DNA of 64,000 bases from Escherichia coli (lineage in GTDB: Bacteria > Pseudomonadota > Gammaproteobacteria > Enterobacterales > Enterobacteriaceae), in NCBI RefSeq assembly GCF_016026235.1, contig NZ_CP065613.1. One strand, given 5' to 3'. The notes beneath the pieces are model-generated. The model was not told the origin of the DNA. It saw nothing but the letters and a program-made list of their open reading frames with translations, and did no database searches. Of the stretch, positions 42,987 to 55,262 are shown in pieces. The first letter of the stretch is position 1. The number at the start of each line of letters is the position of its first letter. The position numbers and the translations under genes were made by a program.

Positions 42987-43550
42987 TTACTCAACGTCAA
43001 ACGCCCGAATTGAAGCCAAATCATCCAGACCGCTCAGCTCCTCTTTCATTTCACGCTGACGGCGATAAATCTCATCGTTGCGATCGACCTGCGCCTGCAC
43101 CATTGCTGCCGCCAGTTCTTCCAGTTCCGGCATCGACAGTTTCACCTGCTGATTATCGGCATCGCTCCACGCCATATGTGTTTGTGCTGTGACAGATTTT
43201 GCCAGCATGACTACCGGGGACAGGCGGCCCAGTGAGTCGGGGCCAGCATTCCAGATACGACCGTTCCATTCAAACGTGAACGGCTTCGCCTCCTGTTCTG
43301 TGCGCCATGCTTCAATTTCCTGACGTCTGGCCTCTCTGGCCGCTTCCAGCATTTCTGGTGTCACAGTGAATGGGGCTATCTCACCCCATTTGCCACTTTG
43401 CAGTTCCTGCCAGATTTGCTGACCCGTCGGTGCGACATCATCAGCGGTGGCTGTGTAGGGAACTGCCTGGTCCCTGTCGTCAAAAAAAACGTCACAGTCT
43501 ACTGCGCCACTTTCGGTATAACGGGGATTAATGATTTTTTTAATTTCCAC
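42987..43550 (-). CDS. tail fibre assembly protein
   Basis: …[25 protein letters not shown]… Tfa-like; start set at a GTG (43550) just after the tail-fibre stop, uncertain. Confidence 0.6.
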
Positions 43551-43560
43551 GGTGCATTCC

Positions 43561-44973
43561 TCACGATGTGCGAATAAAAAGCCCGGGCATTGCGCCAGAG
43601 ACATGTGCATCCGGCACCCCGGACAGGGCGCAATATGACCCCGGTAATGAATGCTCTGAACATCCCGTAATGAAAAATTGTGGGTATGCTATATGCGTTC
43701 CGGTGGGAGTACTGGGCACTGAAATCCCCACCGGTCCCAGTCGTGAGCCTCTGTATGACTGCCCCCTGACAAGTCTGATGACTTTATCACCGTCAGCTTC
43801 TCCCTGGTACGCAGCAATAATCAGCCCGCCAATGTCAGGGTCTCCCCATCTGTTGCAGACAGAGCTCGCCACGATTCTGTAAATAATATCTTCTGTGGTT
43901 ATATTTATTTTCACCCAGTCAGTCAGTCTGGATATGGGCCAGTAGCAGTAGCGGGTGTGATAAATGGGGCCGTTAATGCCGTAAAAAGTAAGGGATTTGG
44001 CTCTGTACCGCGGTTCTGTTGTCTCAGGGCGTGCATCAGTCCACCGGATGCTGAGCACCCCTTCAAACCGTGTGTCGGGTATGATGCCCAGGCGGCCAGC
44101 AACGGAATACTCACCTGGCAGCGCATTCCTTACCCAGGCCAGGAAATCACTCTTAGTGTCAAAACGGATAACATCTTCAGGCAGAAAAGCACACCCAAAG
44201 CCGAATGCGCCGGGTATCGCCAGACGGCCTTTTGTCCGATCGTAAATGTCGCTCTGTGCTTCCATCGTGGCCGCACTTTTCAGCCCCAGATTATCCCGGG
44301 ACTTCTGTTGTGCCTTTTCGCCTGCTGCTGCGATTTCTGACAGATGGTTAGCCGTTTTCAGAGTGCCGGTCAGCGCAGCATCAATGTCATTTTTGGCCTG
44401 TTCTGCTGCGCGGGCATAACCTGCGGCTGCCTGTGCACGCTGACCGGATAAGACGGCGTTTTTCCCCGTGCTTTTCACGTCTTCCGCAGTGGCCTTTCTG
44501 TCCTCTGCAGTGGCAACTGCATCCTGTCTGGCATTCTCCGCAAAACGTTGTGCATCATCACGGGCCGTTGCGGCTGCCGCCACATTCTGCGCCGTCTGCT
44601 GTGCGTTTCCGGCTGCAGCCCCGGCACTCTGCTGCGCCTGCGCCACCATTTCCTCAAAGCGCTTCATCACCTCCGGACGTAAATCACCATCCTTTGGTGC
44701 ATTCAGAAACGCGTTCAGTGTCCCCGGTGCATCAGTCGGTGCCACATCAATATCCCCGACACGGGTTGGCTGCCAGCCGTTACAGTGAAGCGCAACCTCG
44801 TAATACCCCGGCTCAGCCTCAATCACATAAGCACCGTTATTGTCCGTCACGCAAGTGGCAACAACGTGTGCCACAACGGTCGGACTGGTTCTTCTGGCCC
44901 GCAGTTCAATCGCACAATTTACGACAGGTTTACCCGCCCCATCTTTCAGTACACCTGAAATCTTTACTGCCAT
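43561..44973 (-). CDS. side tail fibre protein
   Basis: Start at MAVKISGVLKDGAGKPVVNCAIELRA (44973), a lambdoid tail-fibre N-terminus; Ala/Gln-rich coiled stretch. Confidence 0.75.
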   Translation of the reverse strand: MAVKISGVLKDGAGKPVVNCAIELRARRTSPTVVAHVVATCVTDNNGAYVIEAEPGYYEVALHCNGWQPTRVGDIDVAPTDAPGTLNAFLNAPKDGDLRPEVMKRFEEMVAQAQQSAGAAAGNAQQTAQNVAAAATARDDAQRFAENARQDAVATAEDRKATAEDVKSTGKNAVLSGQRAQAAAGYARAAEQAKNDIDAALTGTLKTANHLSEIAAAGEKAQQKSRDNLGLKSAATMEAQSDIYDRTKGRLAIPGAFGFGCAFLPEDVIRFDTKSDFLAWVRNALPGEYSVAGRLGIIPDTRFEGVLSIRWTDARPETTEPRYRAKSLTFYGINGPIYHTRYCYWPISRLTDWVKINITTEDIIYRIVASSVCNRWGDPDIGGLIIAAYQGEADGDKVIRLVRGQSYRGSRLGPVGISVPSTPTGTHIAYPQFFITGCSEHSLPGSYCALSGVPDAHVSGAMPGLFIRTS

Positions 44974-45036
44974 ATTCACCCCACAAAAAGCCCGCCTGAA
45001 CCAGCGGGCTGTCATAACACTGTGTTACCTGGCTAA

Positions 45037-45636
45037 TCAGAACTTATAACCGACACCCACGATGAAACCGTCAGTGCGCCAGTCGCCACTGCCGGAACCT
45101 TCATAAGCAAGGTCAACGGCCACGGATTCGGTCGGGTTAAACTGCACGCCAGCTCCCCACGCCAGAGACGTGTTGCTGTGGCGACCGTCATCACTTCCGG
45201 TCAGCACATCGTGCGTTTTCCCCTTGTTGTCAGTTACGCGGAGATAATCCCCGGAGAAGGTCGACACACGGCTGTAAGCCACGCCCGCCATCGCATACGC
45301 GCTGAACCATTCATTCACGCGCACAGACGGCCCCGCCATCACGCTGAACCAGCGGTTACGCACGGAATCCTCATGCCAGCAGGTATCGCTGTAATGCGTT
45401 TTTTGCTCATCTTCAGCGTTGGCATAGCTGAATGACGTCACCAGCCCCAGCGTGTCCGTAAACTCATAACGGTATTTCACGTTAATCCCGTTCAGATCAT
45501 CACTGCCGGGAGCGTTCGTCGAGGCATGAAGATACCCCGCGCTCAGCGTGGACTGATGTTCAGACGCCCATGCAGGCGCACCGGATACAGCCAGACAGAT
45601 GGCTGCGGACAAAATGGCAGCATAAAGTTTACGCAT
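45037..45636 (-). CDS. lom: Lom outer-membrane protein (Ail/Lom family)
   Basis: 199-aa ORF MRKLYAAILSAAICLAVSGAPAWASEHQSTLSAGYLHASTN…GVGYKF, near-identical to lambda Lom. Confidence 0.9.
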   Translation of the reverse strand: MRKLYAAILSAAICLAVSGAPAWASEHQSTLSAGYLHASTNAPGSDDLNGINVKYRYEFTDTLGLVTSFSYANAEDEQKTHYSDTCWHEDSVRNRWFSVMAGPSVRVNEWFSAYAMAGVAYSRVSTFSGDYLRVTDNKGKTHDVLTGSDDGRHSNTSLAWGAGVQFNPTESVAVDLAYEGSGSGDWRTDGFIVGVGYKF

Positions 45637-45703
45637 AATTACCTCTCGCTTTTCTGCAATAAAAAAGGCACCATTTCTGGTGCCCGTATCTGGGTTATAA
45701 AAT

Positions 45704-48700
45704 TCAGCTGATACTGATACCTGCTGTGGATTTCTTCATCACAACAACCAGCAAATCGCTGATACTTGCTGTGGGATACCAGCCATTTACCAGCCATGCC
45801 GATACAGAAAACTCCAGCGTCATGTGACCGTGACCGGCAGGCATATCAATAACACCCGTATATATCAGCGTATTATCCAGGGTCGTTCGGTTATAAATTT
45901 CAGCACCGTTTTTCTTCACTATCAGGCGGCATGACGAATAAATATTGTTATTCTTCCGCTCATGTTTAGCACCGCGAAACGCCACCGCGGGAATAACAAT
46001 TTGCCGATCAAACGGCTGATCGTCATAAACCCTGACGGTAATGGTCCCTGATGGCCACCTCTCCGGTGCACGGGAGTCCCGTGGGAAAGGTTTGCCCACT
46101 GTTTTAACGAGATCGCCTTCAATCTGGTTCGCGGACAATTTTCCCAGAACCCGACAGTTCTTATTAATCGTGACGTTGTTGAGCGTCCCGGAGTTCACGT
46201 TACCGCTGATATCGGCATTTTTCGCCGTCAGCCGTCCGCCAGGTGTCAGGGAAAATGCCGGAGGATTACCGCCGCTGGTAATGGTCGGAGCCGTCAGGCG
46301 TTTCAGGAACACGTCGTTCATGAATATCTGATCGCCCTGACCAACAAACATCGGCTTTGTGTTGCCATTCGCAGGATTAATCATCGCAATCCTGTCTGCC
46401 GCCAGCAGCACCTGACTCTGCATTCCTGCTGGCGTATTCTCAATACCGGCACCGATACCCGCAATATAAAGGCGTCCGTCCTTCATCTGTTGCAGCTTCA
46501 CAGCCCACATGCTGTTCAGGTTATTATTTGTATCAACCTGAACTTTCTGTATCTGCTGGATTGCAGCACTCTGATTTTCCAGTTTTTTATTGACGGTTTG
46601 CGTGATTTCATTGCTGACATTCGTAATGGACGTCCTGATTTCAGTCAGGTCCGGCGCAAGCTGACCGTTATCAATCTGCGTCCACAACTCCTTGCCGAGA
46701 TGCGTTTTATTGATCAACCCTTTATAAAAACTCAGATAACCTTCCGCATCATCGCTCGCCCGACCGACGGCCTCCACAAATGCCGATTTGCCAACGGTGT
46801 TCACACTGCGAACGTAAAAATAATAATCATGGCCCGGCCTGATATTGATACTGGCGGCTATCCAGTACAGCGCCGTGCCAAGATAGCGGGCGCTGGTTTC
46901 AACCTGCCTGATATCCGCAATCCGCTTTTCCGAAAACCAGAACTCAAACTGCACCGTCGGGTCATATACAGCCAGTTTCGGGACCGCCGTTATCTGAAAA
47001 TACCCCGGTATCAGTTCAATAGTGACAGGCGCTGCCGGTGCCGCAATCCGGAACGATACCGACGCCGGATCGCCCTGCTGCCCCGGGCATTTACCACCCG
47101 GACTGTCAGACTGTAATTCCCCAGCGCCAGCTGCCTGAAGCGGTATGTGGTTTCCGTCGTCCGGGCTGTGCTGACCAGCCGCTCACTGCCGTCGTCCGCT
47201 GCCACGGTCAGGCGAAGCAGGAAGCTCACTCCCTTCACCACCTTCGGCGTGTCCCATCGCGCCAGCACCTGATATTCCCCGCTGTCTGCGGTGACTTCGG
47301 CGGTCAGATGCTGCACCGCTGGCGGCGTGACACCATTCACCGTGCCGCGCCGGTCACCGTCAAAGTGTGCCCCGTTATCCACGATGGCCTCTTTTTCCGG
47401 CACATGCTGCACGGCGGTGATGGCATACGTGCCGTCGTCGTTCTCACGGATACTCACGCAGCGGAACAGGCGCTGGCGCAGCGTCGGCAGCTTCAGCCCC
47501 CACACGCTGTATTCTGCAACGCCGTCAGGAACCCGGCTCACTTTCACCTTCACGCCGTCGGTGACGGACTGAACCTCCACGCTGACCGGACTCCCCTGCC
47601 CGTCAACCAGGCTTATCAGCGTGGTGCCGGAAGATGGCAGCGTGATTTCACGGTCGAGCGTCAGCGTCCGGGTCTGGCTGTTTACCGCCAGCACGCGCCC
47701 GCCGGTGCTGATACCGGCATAGTCATCATCGCAGATTTCAATGACATCGCCCGGTACATGGCGAAGCCCTTCAGCACCCACGCTGAAGTCCACGGTCTGC
47801 GTTTCCAGCAGCTCCGTTTTAATCAGCCACAGCCCGGCGCGGTGTGCCTGCCCCCGACTGGTACAGCCAAAGGCATCCATCTTCGTGACATTACGACCGT
47901 AACGGGCAATGGCCTGCGTATCTTCAACAAGCTCTGTCGCCGTCTCCCAGCCGTTATCCGGGTCAATCCAGTTCACCTCAACGGCATTATGGCGGTCCTT
48001 CAGGGCGCTGAAGCTGTAGCGGAACGGCGCGCCATCATCCGGCATCACCACATTACTGCGGTTATAGGTCCACACCTTATCCGACGGTCGGTCCTGCACG
48101 AACGTCAGCGTCTGCCCGTTCCATACCGGCATACAGCGCATCGCCGAGCAGAAATCACTGAGCACATCCCACGCCTTGCGCTGTGTGGTCAGGTACGCAT
48201 TACAGGTGATGCGCGGCTCCGTGCCGCCAAAGCCGTCCGGCACCGACTGATCGCAATTCTGGCCGATGACATACAGCGCCCATTTATCCACATCCGCCGC
48301 ACCAAGACGTTTCCCCATGCCGTAGCGCGGGTGGGTCAGCATATCCCACAGACACCAGGCCATATTGTTGCTGTATGCTGGCTTAAACGTTCCGTCCCAG
48401 ATACCGCTGTATTGCCGCGTCTGCGGGTTATAGTTCGACGGCACCTGCAGAATGCGCCCGCGAAGATGATAATTGCGACTCACCTGCTGGTTACCGAACT
48501 GCTCTGAATCCACCTGCACGCCGACCAGCGCCGTGTTCGGGTAGCACTGTTTCACATCGATGATTTCGGTGTACGACGACCAGAGCGTTTTGTTCTGCAG
48601 CTGGTCTGTGGTGCTGTCCGGTGTCATCCTGCGCATCCGGATATTAAACGGGCGCGGCGGCAGGTTACCCACCACCACCGAGGCCAGATACTGCGAAGTG

Positions 48701-49176
48701 GTTTTGCCCTTAATGGTGATGTCTTTTTCCGTCACCCAGCCACCGTTACGCTGTATCTGAACCAGCAGGCGGACTTCCGACGGATTCCGGTCCCCCTTTG
48801 AGGTGGTTTCCACCAGTGCCTGCACACCGAAGGTCAGGCGCAGACGATCAATGTTTGCCGACGTGATGGTCCGGGTGATCGGCGTGTCGTATTTCACTTC
48901 CGTACCCAGCACCGTCTCGGAGCCGGAAGATTCAAACCCCTCCGGCGGTGTCTGCTCCTGCTCGCCGGCGCGGAACACCACCGTAACACCGGAAAAGTTT
49001 GTCTTCCCCTCGCTGTCCAGGACCGGCGTACCGTTCAGCAGCACGCTTTTTAATCCATCCACCGGACCGTCAACCGGCCCTTCGCTGATGGCATCAATCA
49101 CACTCAGCAACTGCGTGGATTTCAGGTTGTCCTTCGCTTCGCGCGGGGTATGCCCCTTACTGCTGCCTTTACCCAT
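45704..49176 (-). pseudogene. tail tip/host-specificity protein J, frameshifted
   Basis: ORFs 47011..49176 and 45704..46954 match the lambda J N- and C-terminal parts in different frames; shift maps to a G-run at ~47081-47087 (VNAWGQQGD expected). Confidence 0.6.
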
Positions 49177-49236
49177 TCCTCACGCTCCATAAACGACAAA
49201 ACCGCCCGCAGGCGGTTTCACATAAAACATTTTGCA

Positions 49237-49878
49237 TCAGCGACCAATCACCACAACCTGACCACCATCCCCTTCGTCTGCCGTGCTGATCTCCTGAGAA
49301 ACCACACGTGACCCCACGCGCATTTCACCGTACAGAACGGGCAGAACATTGCCCTGGGCAACCATGTTATCCAGTGACGAGAAATACGTGTTCTGCTTAC
49401 CGTTATCCGTTGTCTGTGTACGGGGAGTTCTGGCTTTCGGTGCCAGCATCTGTGCAACACCGCCAAGCGTCATACTGGCACCGAGAGAAAACAGCAGATT
49501 ACTCGCCATAATTCCTACCCCCGGCATCCATATAGCAACCGCCATAACAGCCGCCCCCAGCACCGCCTGAAACACACCGCCACTTTTAGCTCCCACCAGA
49601 CGCGGTACTATGTGGATCACTGCACCATTTGCCAGCGGCTCATTAAGACGGGCAGACAATTCGGTTTCACCTGCATCACGCCCGGCAATGCGCACCTGAT
49701 ACCAGCCGTCACTCAGTTTCTGACGAAACGCCGGGAGCTGTGTGGCCAGTGCCCGGATGGCTTCAGCCCCCGTTTTCACACGAAGGTCGATGCGGCGACC
49801 AAATCGTTGTAAATCCCCGTAAAGGCAGATGCGCGCCATGCCCGGTGACGCCAGAGGGAGTGTGTGCGTCGCTGCCAT
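49237..49878 (-). CDS. tail assembly protein I
   Basis: 213-aa ORF MAATHTLPLASPGMARICLYGDLQRFGRRIDLRV…, lambda I homologue. Confidence 0.85.
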   Translation of the reverse strand: MAATHTLPLASPGMARICLYGDLQRFGRRIDLRVKTGAEAIRALATQLPAFRQKLSDGWYQVRIAGRDAGETELSARLNEPLANGAVIHIVPRLVGAKSGGVFQAVLGAAVMAVAIWMPGVGIMASNLLFSLGASMTLGGVAQMLAPKARTPRTQTTDNGKQNTYFSSLDNMVAQGNVLPVLYGEMRVGSRVVSQEISTADEGDGGQVVVIGR

Positions 49879-50519
49879 TTGTCGGTGTACCTCTCTCGTT
49901 TGCTCAGTTGTTCAGGAATATGGTGCAGCAGCCCGCCGTCACCGCAGTAAATGGCGGCATGATTCGGCACCGATGAACCAAAACAGCACAGCAGCACATC
50001 GCCCGGCTGCGCCTCTGTCAGTGCGACACGGTAAAAACCCGTCACCTCCATATTGTCAAGATAGAGATTCTGACCGTTACGCCACCAGTCATCCCCGCGA
50101 TGAAAATCCGGCATCTCAATCCCCGCCAGATGATAAGCATCCCGGAACAGCGTGTAACAGTCCGTCACCCCGTGCTCAAAGCGCCGCCCGGTGAGATGCG
50201 GCACACAGCGGAATTTATGAATCTCACCCCGGCAGACCAGCCACCAAGGCAAATCACTCTGCACCTGCAGCCGCCGGTCAGCCTCACTCAGCCAGGGCAG
50301 ACCACCGGGATGACTGTGGACCAGCGCCACAATCTCACCCAGCATTTGTGCCCGCAGCCAGTCCTCCGGAGCCATCCGGAACCGTTCCTCCGGCTCACCG
50401 GAGATATTCTCGCTGGGAAGATACCTGTCTCCCTCCGGCGTTCTCACCACGAAGCCACACGACTCCGCTGGCGCACATCGCCGGGCGTGCGCCAGAATCG
50501 CTGATTCTGTCTGTGTCAT
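49776..50519 (-). CDS. tail assembly protein K (NlpC/P60-like)
   Basis: Start at MTQTESAILAHARRCAPAESCGFVV (50519); lambda K homologue. Confidence 0.8.
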   Translation of the reverse strand: MTQTESAILAHARRCAPAESCGFVVRTPEGDRYLPSENISGEPEERFRMAPEDWLRAQMLGEIVALVHSHPGGLPWLSEADRRLQVQSDLPWWLVCRGEIHKFRCVPHLTGRRFEHGVTDCYTLFRDAYHLAGIEMPDFHRGDDWWRNGQNLYLDNMEVTGFYRVALTEAQPGDVLLCCFGSSVPNHAAIYCGDGGLLHHIPEQLSKRERYTDKWQRRTHSLWRHRAWRASAFTGIYNDLVAASTFV

Positions 50520-50523
50520 GGAT

Positions 50524-51222
50524 TTACTGAGAAAGTTTATTGATGGAAAGGAAACCGCCGAAATTACCGGTATTGTTGCGCAACTCACACCCGCGCATAC
50601 ACTTGCTGCATTTGTCCTTCCGGATATCCGTCGTTGGTTTGTCGAACTCGTCAGCCACTGCCCTGCCCGTGTAACCACACTCATCAGAACGGTAAGTCCA
50701 CATACAGGTATTCGCCAGCATGATACGCCCCGGGAAAACCGCGCCATCCGTCTCCGTTGGTGTGGCCAGCACAAAAGAGGCACTGACCGCGCTCAGTTCG
50801 CTGCACTGCTCGATGCGCCAGCGGCTGATCACCTCCTGTTCCGGATCGGCGTCGCTGTTTCCGTTGACGAAGTTCACCGCATCCAGAAAACGGGCGTAAA
50901 CCTTACGCCTGACCACCGTTCCGCCGACCAGACTCTGCAGATCTTCCGCCATACCGGTGACCATGCCGTGCAGGTTAGAGACCGTCAGTGTCGGACGGGC
51001 AGCACAGCCCCTGCCGTTCAGTTCAAACCCCGACCCCTGAATGGGGTATGCCTGATACTGCCGCCCCTGCCAGGTGACCGGCTCACCTTTTTCGTTCTGC
51101 TCATTACAGAAAAAATAACGCTCACCACCGACCTCTGTCAGATCGATTTCCCAGAGCTCCACCCGGACTGACTGCTCCGCACGGGTGCATTCATTCAGTG
51201 TTTCCTGCCGGATATCCTGCAT
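50524..51222 (-). CDS. tail tip protein L
   Basis: 232-aa ORF MQDIRQETLNECTRAEQS…, lambda L homologue. Confidence 0.9.
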   Translation of the reverse strand: MQDIRQETLNECTRAEQSVRVELWEIDLTEVGGERYFFCNEQNEKGEPVTWQGRQYQAYPIQGSGFELNGRGCAARPTLTVSNLHGMVTGMAEDLQSLVGGTVVRRKVYARFLDAVNFVNGNSDADPEQEVISRWRIEQCSELSAVSASFVLATPTETDGAVFPGRIMLANTCMWTYRSDECGYTGRAVADEFDKPTTDIRKDKCSKCMRGCELRNNTGNFGGFLSINKLSQ

Positions 51223-51551
51223 CAGTTCACCACCTGTTCAAAATCGGCCGTTACAGTCACCCATAACGCCCCCACGCTTGCCGACCATTTACGACAAACC
51301 ACCCTGATCGGTTTCCAGTCATAAGGTGGCGTCCACTGAAATGCGCGGACGCCACCGTGCCGTTCCAGAAAGGCTTTTAAAGATGGGTGTTCACCTTTAC
51401 GAACACGTATCGTCACGCTGTAAGTCGACAACTGGTTATTCAGTCCCGCCGCACGACGCTGTTCATAACCATCGCCCAGCTTCACTGTCACCACTTTCGG
51501 CTCTGATACCACATTCATATCCGGGCGCACTTTCCAGTGAAACGTCTCCAT
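51222..51551 (-). CDS. tail tip protein M
   Basis: 109-aa ORF METFHWKVRPDMNVVSEPKVVTVKLGDGYEQRRAAGLNNQ…, lambda M homologue. Confidence 0.9.
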   Translation of the reverse strand: METFHWKVRPDMNVVSEPKVVTVKLGDGYEQRRAAGLNNQLSTYSVTIRVRKGEHPSLKAFLERHGGVRAFQWTPPYDWKPIRVVCRKWSASVGALWVTVTADFEQVVN

Positions 51552-54508
51552 TACCGGTATGCTCCACTTAACCGGCCACCATCACGGGCCTGCTGTTGCA
51601 TAAAGTCCGCGGCCGCTTTTTTCCCGAGGTCATAAACCACCTTCAGGGCAGCCGGACCTATCTGCCCGTTCGTGCCATCGTTATTGATCTCAATGTTGTA
51701 CTGCGGGGCAAACATCACCATGCCTGAACCACCAGTATCCGCCACACCCCCAGCTTACCATCAGCACCGCGACGCAGTGGCAGAATGGCTTCAGGTCCCG
51801 CTTCCCCCATCACACCCGCGCCTTTTGCAAAAGCAAAAAACGTCGGACGGTTAACCACCGTGCCACTGTAGCGACTCAAATCAGCAGACTGGTAAACACC
51901 GCCATCAGCATTAGTCGTGAAGCCGAATAAAGAACCGACGCCCTTTACCGCCTGCATCATGGCCATCTGTGCCATAATTCTGGCCATATCTGACAACAGG
52001 GAAGAGGTAAAGGATTTAAAATTCAGCTTACCGGTGGTACAGAATGTCGCCAGTGCATTACCGGCACTGCTGAATGCCACTGTAAACATCTGTTCTGCCG
52101 TTCCCGCCGCATTATCCGCATCCGCCGTAAAATTCTGAAACGCCCGCATGGCACCGTTTTTCCAGTCGCCCTGCGCCACTTCCAGTTCCTGCCAGTAGCG
52201 TTTGTTTTCATTCAGTTGTCGCTTCAGGCTCCCCTTCAGCACCTCCTCAGCCCTCCGGTAGTCCTCCGTCCCGTAAGTGCCTTTCTGGCGACTGTCATTC
52301 TCAAGCTGTTGCAACTGTTGCCGGTATTCCTGCCGGATGCGCAACTGTGCCTGGTAGCGCTGCCGCTGCTTATCCCCCATACCTGCAGTGGCAATATCCA
52401 GATTGTGCTGCTCACGCAGTGCACGTTCTTTGTCTGCCAGCTGGCTGGTCAGCTGAACCGTTTTTTTTCTCAGGTCGTTAAGCGCTGTCTGTTTCTGCAG
52501 CTCCTGCTGTTTCACATCCAGCAGCGTCAGCGCCTGAATCAGCTCATTCTTACGGGCCAGCACACTCTTTTCATCTGCCGTCAGCTTTTTCCCGCCCAGG
52601 TCGCTGATGCGCTGCTGCAGGGCCAGAAGCTGTTTATGCGCTTCAGTCATCCTTTCAGTGGCAATGCCTGCTGACTGTCTGGCAGCAGCAATCTGCCCTT
52701 CCACCTGTGCCTGCTGCTGACTGTACTGCAGCAATAACCGGGTGGCCTCATCATTACGGGTTGCCCGTGTATTTTTCTTAATGGCTTTTTCGTAACGTTC
52801 ATTTTCACGCTGTATCGCCGCATCCCTGACAGCCTGGTCGGCGTACTGCATGGCATTAATACGCGCAATTTCCCGCTGATGTCGTGCAGCTTCCGTTTCA
52901 TTCATCCGGTTCAGCGCGGCATTTTCAGCATTCCGGCGTTTCTGTTGCTCCTGGTAATTCCGTTCTGCCTGCGCTTTTGCATCCTGCAAATCCTTCCGGC
53001 GTTTTTTCTCCTGAAGATCGTTAAGACGCTGCTGATCGTACTCCACCTGTGTGGAGGCGTTTGTCCACGGATATTTTTTCGCGCGCTGAATTTTTTCCTG
53101 TAACGCATCAATCTGCGCATCCAGCGAGTCTTCACGACCAATATTCATGGCCGCATCCCAGAACTGCTTCCACCAGTCAGACAAGGTTTGCAGCGTACTA
53201 CCCAGCGCATTGAGATTATTATCAATATCAGATGTGCGTTTACCGGTTTCCTCTGCCAGCGCAGACATGGCGATCCGGGCCGCATCACTGGACCGCCCCT
53301 GCTCCCCAAGGACGCGTATCTGCTCAAGCTGAGTGGCAGTCAAAAAATGCAGCGCATTGTCCAGCGCCTTCGCGGCATTTACAGGATCATCCTTCAGCCG
53401 CTTAAACTGATTTATGGTATCGCTGACCGACTGGCCAACCGATCGCTCCATCTGTGCGGCAGCTTTCGCCACCATACCAATATCGTTTCCATGAAATGCC
53501 CCACTGCCCGACAGTGACACCGGCATAATGTCCCGTCAGCGCCAGCTGACGGTTAAATTCCTCGCCCTCCTTCCGGCCGTCATGCCAGGCTTTACCCAGA
53601 CCCAGGACCGCCGCGACAAGTCCGCCAATAACGCCGCCAGTCATCATGCCTTTCGGCGACATCAGTGCGCCTGTCCATCCGGCACGGTTAGCCAGCGTTA
53701 TCCCGGATCCCCTCAGCGCACCAAAATTGCCGCGCGCCATCTGACTGATTAACACCCCCAGCTCCCGCCGGGCTGCCGCACTTTTCAGCCCCAGCGAATG
53801 TGTGGCTTTTCCTGCCCGCTCCATTTTGCGGATATACACTTCTGCAGCACTGCTTACCCCCAGCTGAGCCGCCCTGGCGCGAAGCAACTCAGAAGACGAC
53901 AGATTCTGGCGGGTTGCCTGCTCTTTAAGCTGGCGGATAAACGCCGCTTTCTGCCGGGTGGCCTGTTCCTCTGCCTGCGTCAGGGCACGGGTTTTCGCCG
54001 TGATCTCCGAAATCAGCGCCAGATAATCCTGCTGACCAACCCCGCCACTGTTTCTGGCCTGTCGGATCTGCTGCTGAATACGCTGTAATTCCTGAAGCCC
54101 CGCACCGGCCTGTTTCACACTGTCAATCTGGCGATAAAAGGCGGCAGCCGCTTTATCCTGCGCCTCCGCCAGTGCCCTGGCCTGCGCCTGTTCCTCGCGC
54201 ATTTTCTGGCTCAGCGCCTCCATGCGCTGGCGGGTTTTCTCCACCTCGCGGGCCATGCGTTCATGAGCCTGTGCGTTCTTCTCCACCGTCTGCGCATGGA
54301 CGGATGCGGCTGTTGCAGCCGAAGAAGCCGCCTGCGTTGTCTGCCGGGCGGCCTGAGTCTGACGCTCCATAAAACGCTGCATACGGGCAGAAGACCGTTC
54401 TGCATCGCTGGCTGCACCATTCAGAAGGTTTTTGATACGGGGAATTTCATTTTTAAACTCTGCCGCATCAATCCCCAAATCAATGACCAGGTTGGCTATC
54501 TGGTCCAT
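51551..54508 (-). pseudogene. tail tape-measure protein H, split over three ORFs by two frameshifts
   Basis: ORFs 53402..54538 and 51551..51745 share a frame; 51715..53526 is in another; the C-terminal block NNDGTNGQIGPAALKVVYD resembles the lambda H C-terminus. Confidence 0.55.
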
Positions 54509-54809
54509 AACGCACACCTCCGGAAATACCTTCCCCAAGATGCATCAGTTCTTCGTCCGTTCGCTCCGGTATCCCGTTCTCTTCCGGTAAAAGGCTGAAA
54601 TCAGCCACCGCAGCATCGCTGCTGCCGGACACCATTCTCACGATCAATGCCTTCAGCGAGGCAAACTGCGCATCCATCCACACATCACTGAAGCTCTGCA
54701 TCCGGAAATAATCGCCCCACTCACCAAGCTCAGTGGCCGACATTTCCGACAGCATCCGCCGCCAGTCTGCCCGCCGGAACTCCCGGGCAAGCCGCATGAC
54801 AAACTGCAT
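54480..54809 (-). CDS. T segment of the tail assembly chaperone G-T (reached by -1 frameshift from G)
   Basis: Open in the -1 frame relative to G and continuous across the G stop; heptamer GGAAAAG (plus 54824-54830) lies just before the G stop. Confidence 0.55.
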   Translation of the reverse strand: MQFVMRLAREFRRADWRRMLSEMSATELGEWGDYFRMQSFSDVWMDAQFASLKALIVRMVSGSSDAAVADFSLLPEENGIPERTDEELMHLGEGISGGVRYGPDSQPGH

Positions 54810-54817
54810 TTCCCGCG

Positions 54818-55207
54818 TCAGGACTTTTCCGGCGTCAGCGCCTCATGATCATCATCCCCGGCATTCTCAATGGTCCCCATACCGCTCAGCGACAGAACCC
54901 TCTCCGCCCCCGCGCCCAGCGCATCATACGACCATGTTGTCATAATGGATGCGCAAAGCGTCTCAACATCCTGAGACTGCTCAGCATTCCACAGTGAGCG
55001 GGAAACCAGCCAGGCATTGATATCCATTCCCATACGCAGAAAAGCAATCTGTCGTTCAGCCTCCGGCAGTTCTCCCTCCTGTGCATCAAACTTTGCCGTT
55101 CGCTGCTGAACAAACGTCAGATATTCAATTCTCTGCAGCCCGGACAGCTCACTGAGCACCACGGACTGTTTTTCATAATTAAACGTATCCTGTTTCAGAA
55201 ACATCAT
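54818..55207 (-). CDS. tail assembly chaperone G
   Basis: MMFLKQDTFNYEKQSVVLSELSGLQRIEYL… aligns with lambda G (MFLK…). Confidence 0.75.
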   Translation of the reverse strand: MMFLKQDTFNYEKQSVVLSELSGLQRIEYLTFVQQRTAKFDAQEGELPEAERQIAFLRMGMDINAWLVSRSLWNAEQSQDVETLCASIMTTWSYDALGAGAERVLSLSGMGTIENAGDDDHEALTPEKS

Positions 55208-55262
55208 GTTCTCCGGATGCAAAAAGCCCCGGATAACCGGGGCAATGATGAGTATCGTCCTG

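Follow-up and report, generated by a model that had tools for sequence, protein, structure and literature searches.

One of the closest described counterparts of the locus analysed here is the tail chaperone region of phage lambda, where genes V, G, T and H follow each other and a −1 frameshift takes place near the end of gene G. The lambda shift site is fully canonical (X_XXY_YYZ), with GGA (Gly) in the P site and an invariant lysine codon in the A site, and is located 15 nt before the G stop. The T sequence of lambda is reportedly made solely as a G-T fusion. Homologous G/T pairs with the heptamer G_GAA_AAG, in register at the homologous lysine, are carried by phages N15 (genes 14/15), mEp237, phi80, LLS and mEp213, in which the site likewise lies 15 nt before the G stop.

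The A-site part of these heptamers, A_AAG, is the most shift-prone tetramer of E. coli (A_AAG >> U_UUC > ...); by itself it remains near background, and a strong pseudoknot was required for it to attain 5.6% (Sharma et al. 2014). A P-site codon that is not slippery does not prevent shifting at natural −1 sites such as G_CGA_AAG of IS1222 and A_CGA_AAG of Bacillus cdd, and lambda requires merely a GT:G ratio of about 1:30 (Atkins et al. 2016). Peng et al. (2019) used AUG GAA AAG as a “less slippery” control in their reconstituted E. coli system and obtained mainly the 0-frame product; their dnaX-mimic mRNA had the form AGGGAG-N10-AAAAAAG. The natural dnaX site, A_AAA_AAG, also depends on an A-site A_AAG slip; it possesses an SD-like AGGGAG exactly 10 nt upstream of the heptamer and an essential downstream stem-loop, and has an efficiency of about 50%.

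The G/T junction of the window (the whole stretch of Escherichia coli DNA that was analysed, 64,000 nt) is very probably a genuine, functional-type −1 programmed frameshift site of a lambda-like G/G-T chaperone pair, represented by the common natural variant G_GAA_AAG.

Anatomy of the G/T junction

At the junction, the minus strand of the window reads ...CAT GAG GCG CTG ACG CCG GAA AAG TCC TGA CGC GGG AAA TGC AGT.... The positions of all features are given in Table 1.

Table 1. Features of the G/T junction and its surroundings (positions of the window)
Feature	Position	Strand	Remark
Tail tube ORF	55263..56078	minus	
Terminator-like hairpin	55226..55243	minus	between tail tube gene and G
Gene G, tail assembly chaperone	54818..55204	minus	128 aa, MFLK...TPEKS; from ORF list, sequence and Pfam
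T-frame (−1) upstream stop TGA	54845..54843	minus	read in the −1 frame; bounds the shift region upstream
SD-like GAGG, candidate 5' stimulator	54841..54844	minus	10-nt spacer 54840..54831 to the heptamer
0/−1 overlap	54842..54821	minus	22 nt, seven codons A L T P E K S
Shift site G_GAA_AAG	54830..54824	minus	in-register X_XXY_YYZ of the G frame (G GAA AAG)
Gene G stop TGA	54820..54818	minus	one codon (TCC) after AAG
T part of G-T fusion	54480..54824	minus	−1 frame, GTC (54824..54822) to stop 54482..54480
Tape-measure gene H, pseudogene	51551..54508	minus	ATG 54508 overlaps the T end
ORFs into which H is split	53402..54538, 51715..53526, 51551..51745	minus	

The start of gene G was taken to be the second ATG (55204), with GGAG ahead of it at 55214..55211. 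The product matches Pfam PF06894 (Phage_TAC_2, E=2.7e-40), and the identical sequence in E. coli CFSAN029787 has been annotated by PGAP as gpG, with 387 nt. The T part matches PF06223 (Phage_tail_T, E=5.1e-15). Behind its upstream stop, the −1 frame translates as GADAGKVLTREMQFVMRLAREFRRADWRRML and continues to the T stop, and the predicted junction peptide of the fusion is ...TPEK-VLTREMQFVMRLAREF.... The order tail tube, G, T and H on the minus strand is likewise annotated in mEp460, cdtI and the CFSAN029787 prophage. The predicted fusion is homologous to both gpG and gpT of lambda, with 34% protein identity to the lambda G-T fusion, and its alignment with the fusions of lambda, N15, phi80, Gifsy-2 and Stx2_95 extends across the junction.

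A preliminary description of this DNA, made from the sequence alone, had placed a programmed −1 site of G and T at exactly this heptamer and this G stop, and Pfam matches, gene order and overlap all agree with it. As it had also stated, the T frame, which is −1 relative to G, is open across the G stop as in lambda, namely from 54842 onwards, and the heptamer read directly on the minus strand is GGAAAAG, not GGGAAAG. The locus thus shares with lambda the gene order, the Pfam families, the −1 arrangement near the end of G and the A-site lysine. The differences relate to the P-site codon, the distance of the site from the G stop (3 nt in the window, compared to 15 nt) and the length of the T part after the G stop, which is 112 codons in the window and 138 in lambda.

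Since the T frame has a TGA of its own just upstream, a −1 shift that yields G-T is confined to the 22-nt overlap. In the 0 frame the shift site offers GAA (Glu) to the P site and AAG (Lys) to the A site, and the positions after a −1 slip are GGA and AAA. The heptamer departs from the canonical X_XXY_YYZ pattern, as the first three bases (G, G, A) are not identical, and tRNA-Glu on GGA has a second-position mismatch; this imperfect P-site re-pairing, foreseen in the preliminary description, is stated for the same sequence by Peng et al. (2019). The Z_ZZN tetramer A_AAG, on the other hand, is in register, with tRNA-Lys re-pairing cognately on AAA, and it is the sole in-register motif of this type in the overlap. 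In the naming convention of PRFect, GGAAAAG fits the non-canonical “twofour” pattern, which occurs among the annotated frameshifts of tail chaperones. By itself the heptamer is no rarity in the window (16 occurrences, compared to about 9 expected), and therefore its significance lies in the register, the position within a tiny overlap and the conservation at the homologous lysine, not in mere presence.

According to the mechanism which we infer, most ribosomes would read G to its own stop, giving gpG, and a small fraction would slip back by one base at GAA-AAG. tRNA-Lys would then move from AAG to the cognate AAA, and tRNA-Glu would re-pair near-cognately on GGA (G:C, G·U in the middle, A:U) under standard pairing rules; alternatively, if tRNA-Lys alone slips, re-pairing of tRNA-Glu would be unneeded. 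The slipped ribosomes would resume at GUC CUG ACG and produce the G-T fusion (...TPEK-VLTR...), which would connect the tail tube protein with the tape-measure protein. The A_AAG tetramer would thereby be the slippery element that is essential, with a P-site codon free to vary. As in IS1222 and Bacillus cdd, the P-site codon is non-slippery and only the A-site tRNA-Lys re-pairs cognately; in contrast to those sites, the P-site tRNA of the window can still re-pair through the middle G·U, and no strong 3' stimulator is evident.

The data of Sharma et al. (2014) and Peng et al. (2019) mean that the GGAAAAG site is intrinsically weaker than GGGAAAG in vitro, in line with the reasoning of the preliminary description; viable phages rely on it nevertheless. 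There is a tension here, in that many viable phages naturally use the very sequence that served Peng et al. as a poorly slipping control; this suggests that either a very low level of G-T is sufficient or that the context, possibly the upstream GAGG, is of help. In the literature examined, no direct protein evidence was found for the G-T fusion of any phage with GGAAAAG. Indirectly, plaque-forming phages with the identical site support the view that a low percentage of a fusion needed in tail assembly is produced.

Distribution of the heptamer among lambda-like phages

A tblastn search with the predicted fusion returned 186 phage records. G_GAA_AAG is present in register within the overlap in Gifsy-2 (53% protein identity to the window fusion), in phi80, LLS and mEp213 (37-40%) and in N15 and mEp237 (36%). 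The junctions of lambda, Turner, PhiR12_4 and Stx2a_EH1535 are representatives of G_GGA_AAG, and those of Stx2_95 and Stx1_12188 of A_AAA_AAG. In the alignment of the fusion proteins the lysine of the site forms an invariant column, which includes the lysine of lambda G_GGA_AAG, and the −1-frame peptide [VA][LF]xxE[LM]xF is conserved directly after it, as seen in the aligned junctions EK-VLTREMQF, EK-VLNNELHF, EK-ALASELKF, GK-VFDGELSF and KK-AFEGELNF. The invariant lysine and the conserved −1 residues indicate that the sites are orthologous and differ by one or two bases of the P-site codon. The heptamer is thus kept at the homologous lysine across lineages with only 34-54% protein identity. 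For two of these phages it is already on record as a shift site: positions 10027..10033 of the N15 GenBank record (NC_001901) are annotated as “slippery sequence for -1 translational frameshift”, and the LLS record (PQ299149), which also has a joined CDS, contains a “minus-one programmed translational frameshift site GGAAAAG”.

When IMG/VR was scanned further and G-T was aligned, 79 distinct junctions were obtained (Table 2); this sample is biased to relatives of the window, and the counts are not population frequencies. A lysine codon A_AAR occupies the A site in register in all 79, at P-site codons GAA (67), GCA (6), GGA (4) and AAA (2). The codon between AAG and the stop varies (UCC, CCC, CGC, CCU, UCA, UUC), whereas A_AAG is constant. 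A scan of IMG/VR with CCGGAAAAGNCCTGA gave G-T junctions in only 19 of 119 cases, most of the others being chance matches in unrelated contigs, and added few new lineages.

Table 2. Heptamers of 79 distinct G-T junctions (sample biased to relatives of the window)
Heptamer	Distance to G stop	Junctions
GGAAAAG	3 nt	57
GGAAAAG	15 nt	6
GGCAAAA	0 nt, stop directly after	6
GGGAAAG	15 nt	4
AGAAAAG	0 nt, stop directly after	3
AAAAAAG	15 nt	2
GGAAAAA	0 nt, stop directly after	1

It follows that GGAAAAG is a widespread, ordinary variant, ancestral to a large clade, and not a lesion. For the frameshifts of phage tail chaperones, the XXXYYYZ rule of the textbooks is too strict: what is constant in this family is the A_AAR slip at lysine, and tools or readers demanding GGGAAAG would miss or mis-score a GGAAAAG site.

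In some IMG/VR relatives the lysine codon stands directly before the G stop, as A_GAA_AAG TAA, G_GCA_AAA TAG or G_GAA_AAA TAG (lineages L119-L122, L104, L105, L109, L112, L115-L118 and L129-L131). These sites are less canonical still and suggest a P-site slip of tRNA-Lys of the “shifty stop” type.

Alternative routes to T and the state of the prophage

Expression of T without any frameshift, through independent translation from ATG 54809, is an improbable alternative. This ATG is present in the clade of the window, and T has been annotated as a separate CDS from it by PGAP and most depositors. However, the sole purine-rich stretch ahead of it (GGGAA) ends 1 nt from the ATG, the GAGG is 31 nt away, and the −1 peptide is conserved from the lysine on, which is upstream of this start. 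Moreover, Gifsy-2, L093, L121 and others have no ATG at this place, and yet their −1 frame is open back to the heptamer; T is therefore reachable only by frameshifting in Gifsy-2 and several other lineages. The locus consequently presents a second ORF in the −1 frame that overlaps the first and has no conserved start of its own. The stand-alone annotation of T, given without a ribosomal-slippage join (for instance at 20019..20743 of the CFSAN029787 prophage), is likely a mis-annotation and a very widespread one, the G-T module being found in 1846 of 5426 complete E. coli genomes, i.e. about a third. The records of the cdtI/mEp460 group also give T as a separate CDS, and a frameshift hybrid is mentioned only in that of Gifsy-2.

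Less probable again is a change of frame by another route, either through a shift at another place in the overlap, for example UCC UGA, or through slippage of transcription within the A run. The 0-frame stop is only one codon past the site, and in the related lineages with A_GAA_AAG TAA and G_GCA_AAA TAG a P-site slip of tRNA-Lys opposite a slowly decoded stop is plausible. Such a slip, however, uses the same A_AAG and is thereby a sub-variant of the −1 shift at G_GAA_AAG rather than an alternative site. The seven codons of the overlap offer no other in-register Z_ZZN motif, and it is the intervening codon that varies, not A_AAG. RNA polymerase does not slip efficiently on as few as four A. 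A sequencing error was also considered and rejected.

The conservation of the junction bears on a further alternative. In a megablast search, the 743-nt G-T region was matched by 17 phage records at 96-97% nucleotide identity, among them cdtI, mEp460, Ayreon, Tritos, HannyBb, PhiR55_1 and phi458 of the same clade as the window. Eight records were inspected (these seven and vB_EcoS-569R4), which give laboratory E. coli hosts or environmental isolation sources; the junction CGCCGGAAAAGTCCTGACGCGGGAAATG is exact in each of them. IMG/VR was scanned with the pattern GG[N]AAAG in a 33 nt context, leaving the third heptamer base free, and this base was A in 30/30 matched contigs. Gifsy-2 of Salmonella, which belongs to the clade of the window at 53% protein identity, and the cdtI/mEp460 group have the same junction CCG GAA AAG TCC TGA, with GAGG(A) 10 nt upstream. 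Within the sub-clade of the window, CCG GAA AAG YCC TGA persists to about 50% protein identity, and the acidic linker just upstream is rewritten freely. Seven complete-genome records are 100% identical to the 743-nt query, including CFSAN029787, in whose prophage the tail genes are annotated without interruption and the tape-measure gene measures 3042 nt.

That GGAAAAG is a degraded lambda-type GGGAAAG, produced by G-to-A mutation in the course of prophage decay and lowering the output of G-T, is refuted: the adjoining tape-measure gene is truly broken by two frame-shifting deletions and the heptamer is less slippery in vitro, but it is identical in isolated phages and in an annotated-intact prophage, is kept where proteins are only 36-54% identical and the flanks diverge freely, is annotated as a slippery site in N15 and LLS, and is found among close relatives with intact tails, not all of which carry GGGAAAG. 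The preliminary description had left two readings, another sign of decay or a tolerated variant, and had named functional homologues with the same heptamer as the observation that would speak against decay. Such homologues were looked for and found in working phages, including Gifsy-2, phi80, LLS, mEp213, mEp237 and N15, and the comparison with homologous prophages that it had proposed gave the full identity described above; of its two readings, only the tolerated variant stands.

Genuine decay sits in the adjoining H, and the G-T site is an intact passenger within a decaying tail module. Compared to H of the CFSAN029787 prophage, which is intact with 3042 nt, H of the window lacks 83 nt at about 53510 and 1 nt at about 51747; both deletions break the frame, and for this reason H is split over three ORFs (Table 1). 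In the phages of the cdtI/mEp460 group, by contrast, the tape-measure gene has been annotated as a single intact CDS. The prophage of the window is probably unable to build tails, whatever the G-T site does.

Positions 34567..56993 of the window are about 98-99% identical to the EIEC-type CFSAN029787 prophage. The match runs from its “phage tail protein” gene (18227..18811) into the chromosomal btsSR and yeh genes, and an ipaHe pseudogene is located nearby in the CFSAN029787 prophage region. The head, portal and protease genes past 56993 do not align to this prophage, and the head module is therefore a different mosaic. Between the tail tube gene and G, a terminator-like hairpin GCCCCGGTTATCCGGGGC is followed by TTTTT; mEp460, Ayreon and N15 have an equivalent for which the annotation is rho-independent terminator. 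Transcription may be attenuated by the hairpin before it reaches G, T and H.

Candidate stimulatory elements

A stem-loop or pseudoknot of the dnaX/IS type, 5-9 nt after the site, was not found in the window. The 100 nt past the heptamer fold like shuffled sequence (z=-0.96), and among the six phages folded a strong hairpin was obtained in Gifsy-2 alone. A conserved downstream structure was not found by RNAalifold over 12 diverse junctions either (consensus -4.27 kcal/mol, covariation term +0.17). The Rfam scan of 54300..55400 detected no known frameshift element, its one sub-threshold snoRNA match being due to chance. A shared hairpin in the region coding for LAREFxRPDWR was examined as a conserved stimulator and rejected; it starts more than 30 nt away and is present in lambda too.

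On the 5' side, the GAGG of the window, with its 10-nt spacer, falls within the range of 9-14 nt given in the literature for SD-like stimulators of −1 frameshifting, and its spacing equals that of the dnaX-mimic mRNA of Peng et al. (2019). It is a 4-mer only, and its duplex with the anti-SD has an energy of about -5.6 kcal/mol. Compared to dnaX, the window has the shorter SD-like sequence and no conserved hairpin, and presumably needs an efficiency of a few per cent only.

With the heptamer as the common reference point, the anti-SD duplex energy was scored in segments of 8 nt for a single representative of each 80%-identity cluster, and the clusters were grouped by how far the shift site lies from the G stop. 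Where the site is 0-3 nt from the stop, ΔG ≤ -4 kcal/mol was reached at offsets 6-12 in 17/22 clusters, compared to 3-9 of 22 at other offsets (Fisher p=2e-4 against the pooled other offsets). Where the site is 15 nt from the stop (lambda, N15, phi80 type), this was the case in 1/6 clusters (p=0.013 between the two groups). A null of synonymous-codon resampling gave p of about 0.017 with 22 clusters and about 0.095 with the earlier 13, on lineages that are not independent. The element takes the forms GAGG, GGAGG, AAGGAGGTG, CAGGA and AGGGG.

Much of this signal is explained by the amino-acid sequence, namely Glu or Gln followed by a codon starting with G; for this reason, and since the lineages are not independent, the SD-like element is treated as suggestive only. 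It is absent from several lineages (L121, L279, L293, L119 and L072). Among those with the same heptamer, L121, L279, L293, N15 and phi80 lack it, and the N15, phi80, LLS, mEp213 and mEp237 sites, in contrast to the window, have no such element 6-12 nt upstream; the type with the site 15 nt before the stop, to which lambda also belongs, lacks it. The upstream GAGG is accordingly a candidate 5' stimulator, suggested by the sequence. That the weak G_GAA_AAG or A_AAR site of the 0-3 nt sub-clade is boosted by an SD-like element about 10 nt upstream is a tentative proposal, which we consider possible but doubtful. To our knowledge, a 5' SD stimulator in the style of dnaX or IS elements is undescribed for phage tail chaperone frameshifting. 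If true, the boost would explain how a phage can make use of a heptamer that biochemists have chosen as a “non-slippery” control. The G-T site is of little importance for biology at large, and this upstream sequence of the sub-clade is its only possibly new element.

Gifsy-2 possesses, at 707..785 and starting 10 nt after the heptamer, a long, near-perfect hairpin (-46.9 kcal/mol, z=-5.9) which is shared neither with the clade of the window nor with other relatives, and which may be a lineage-specific 3' stimulator.
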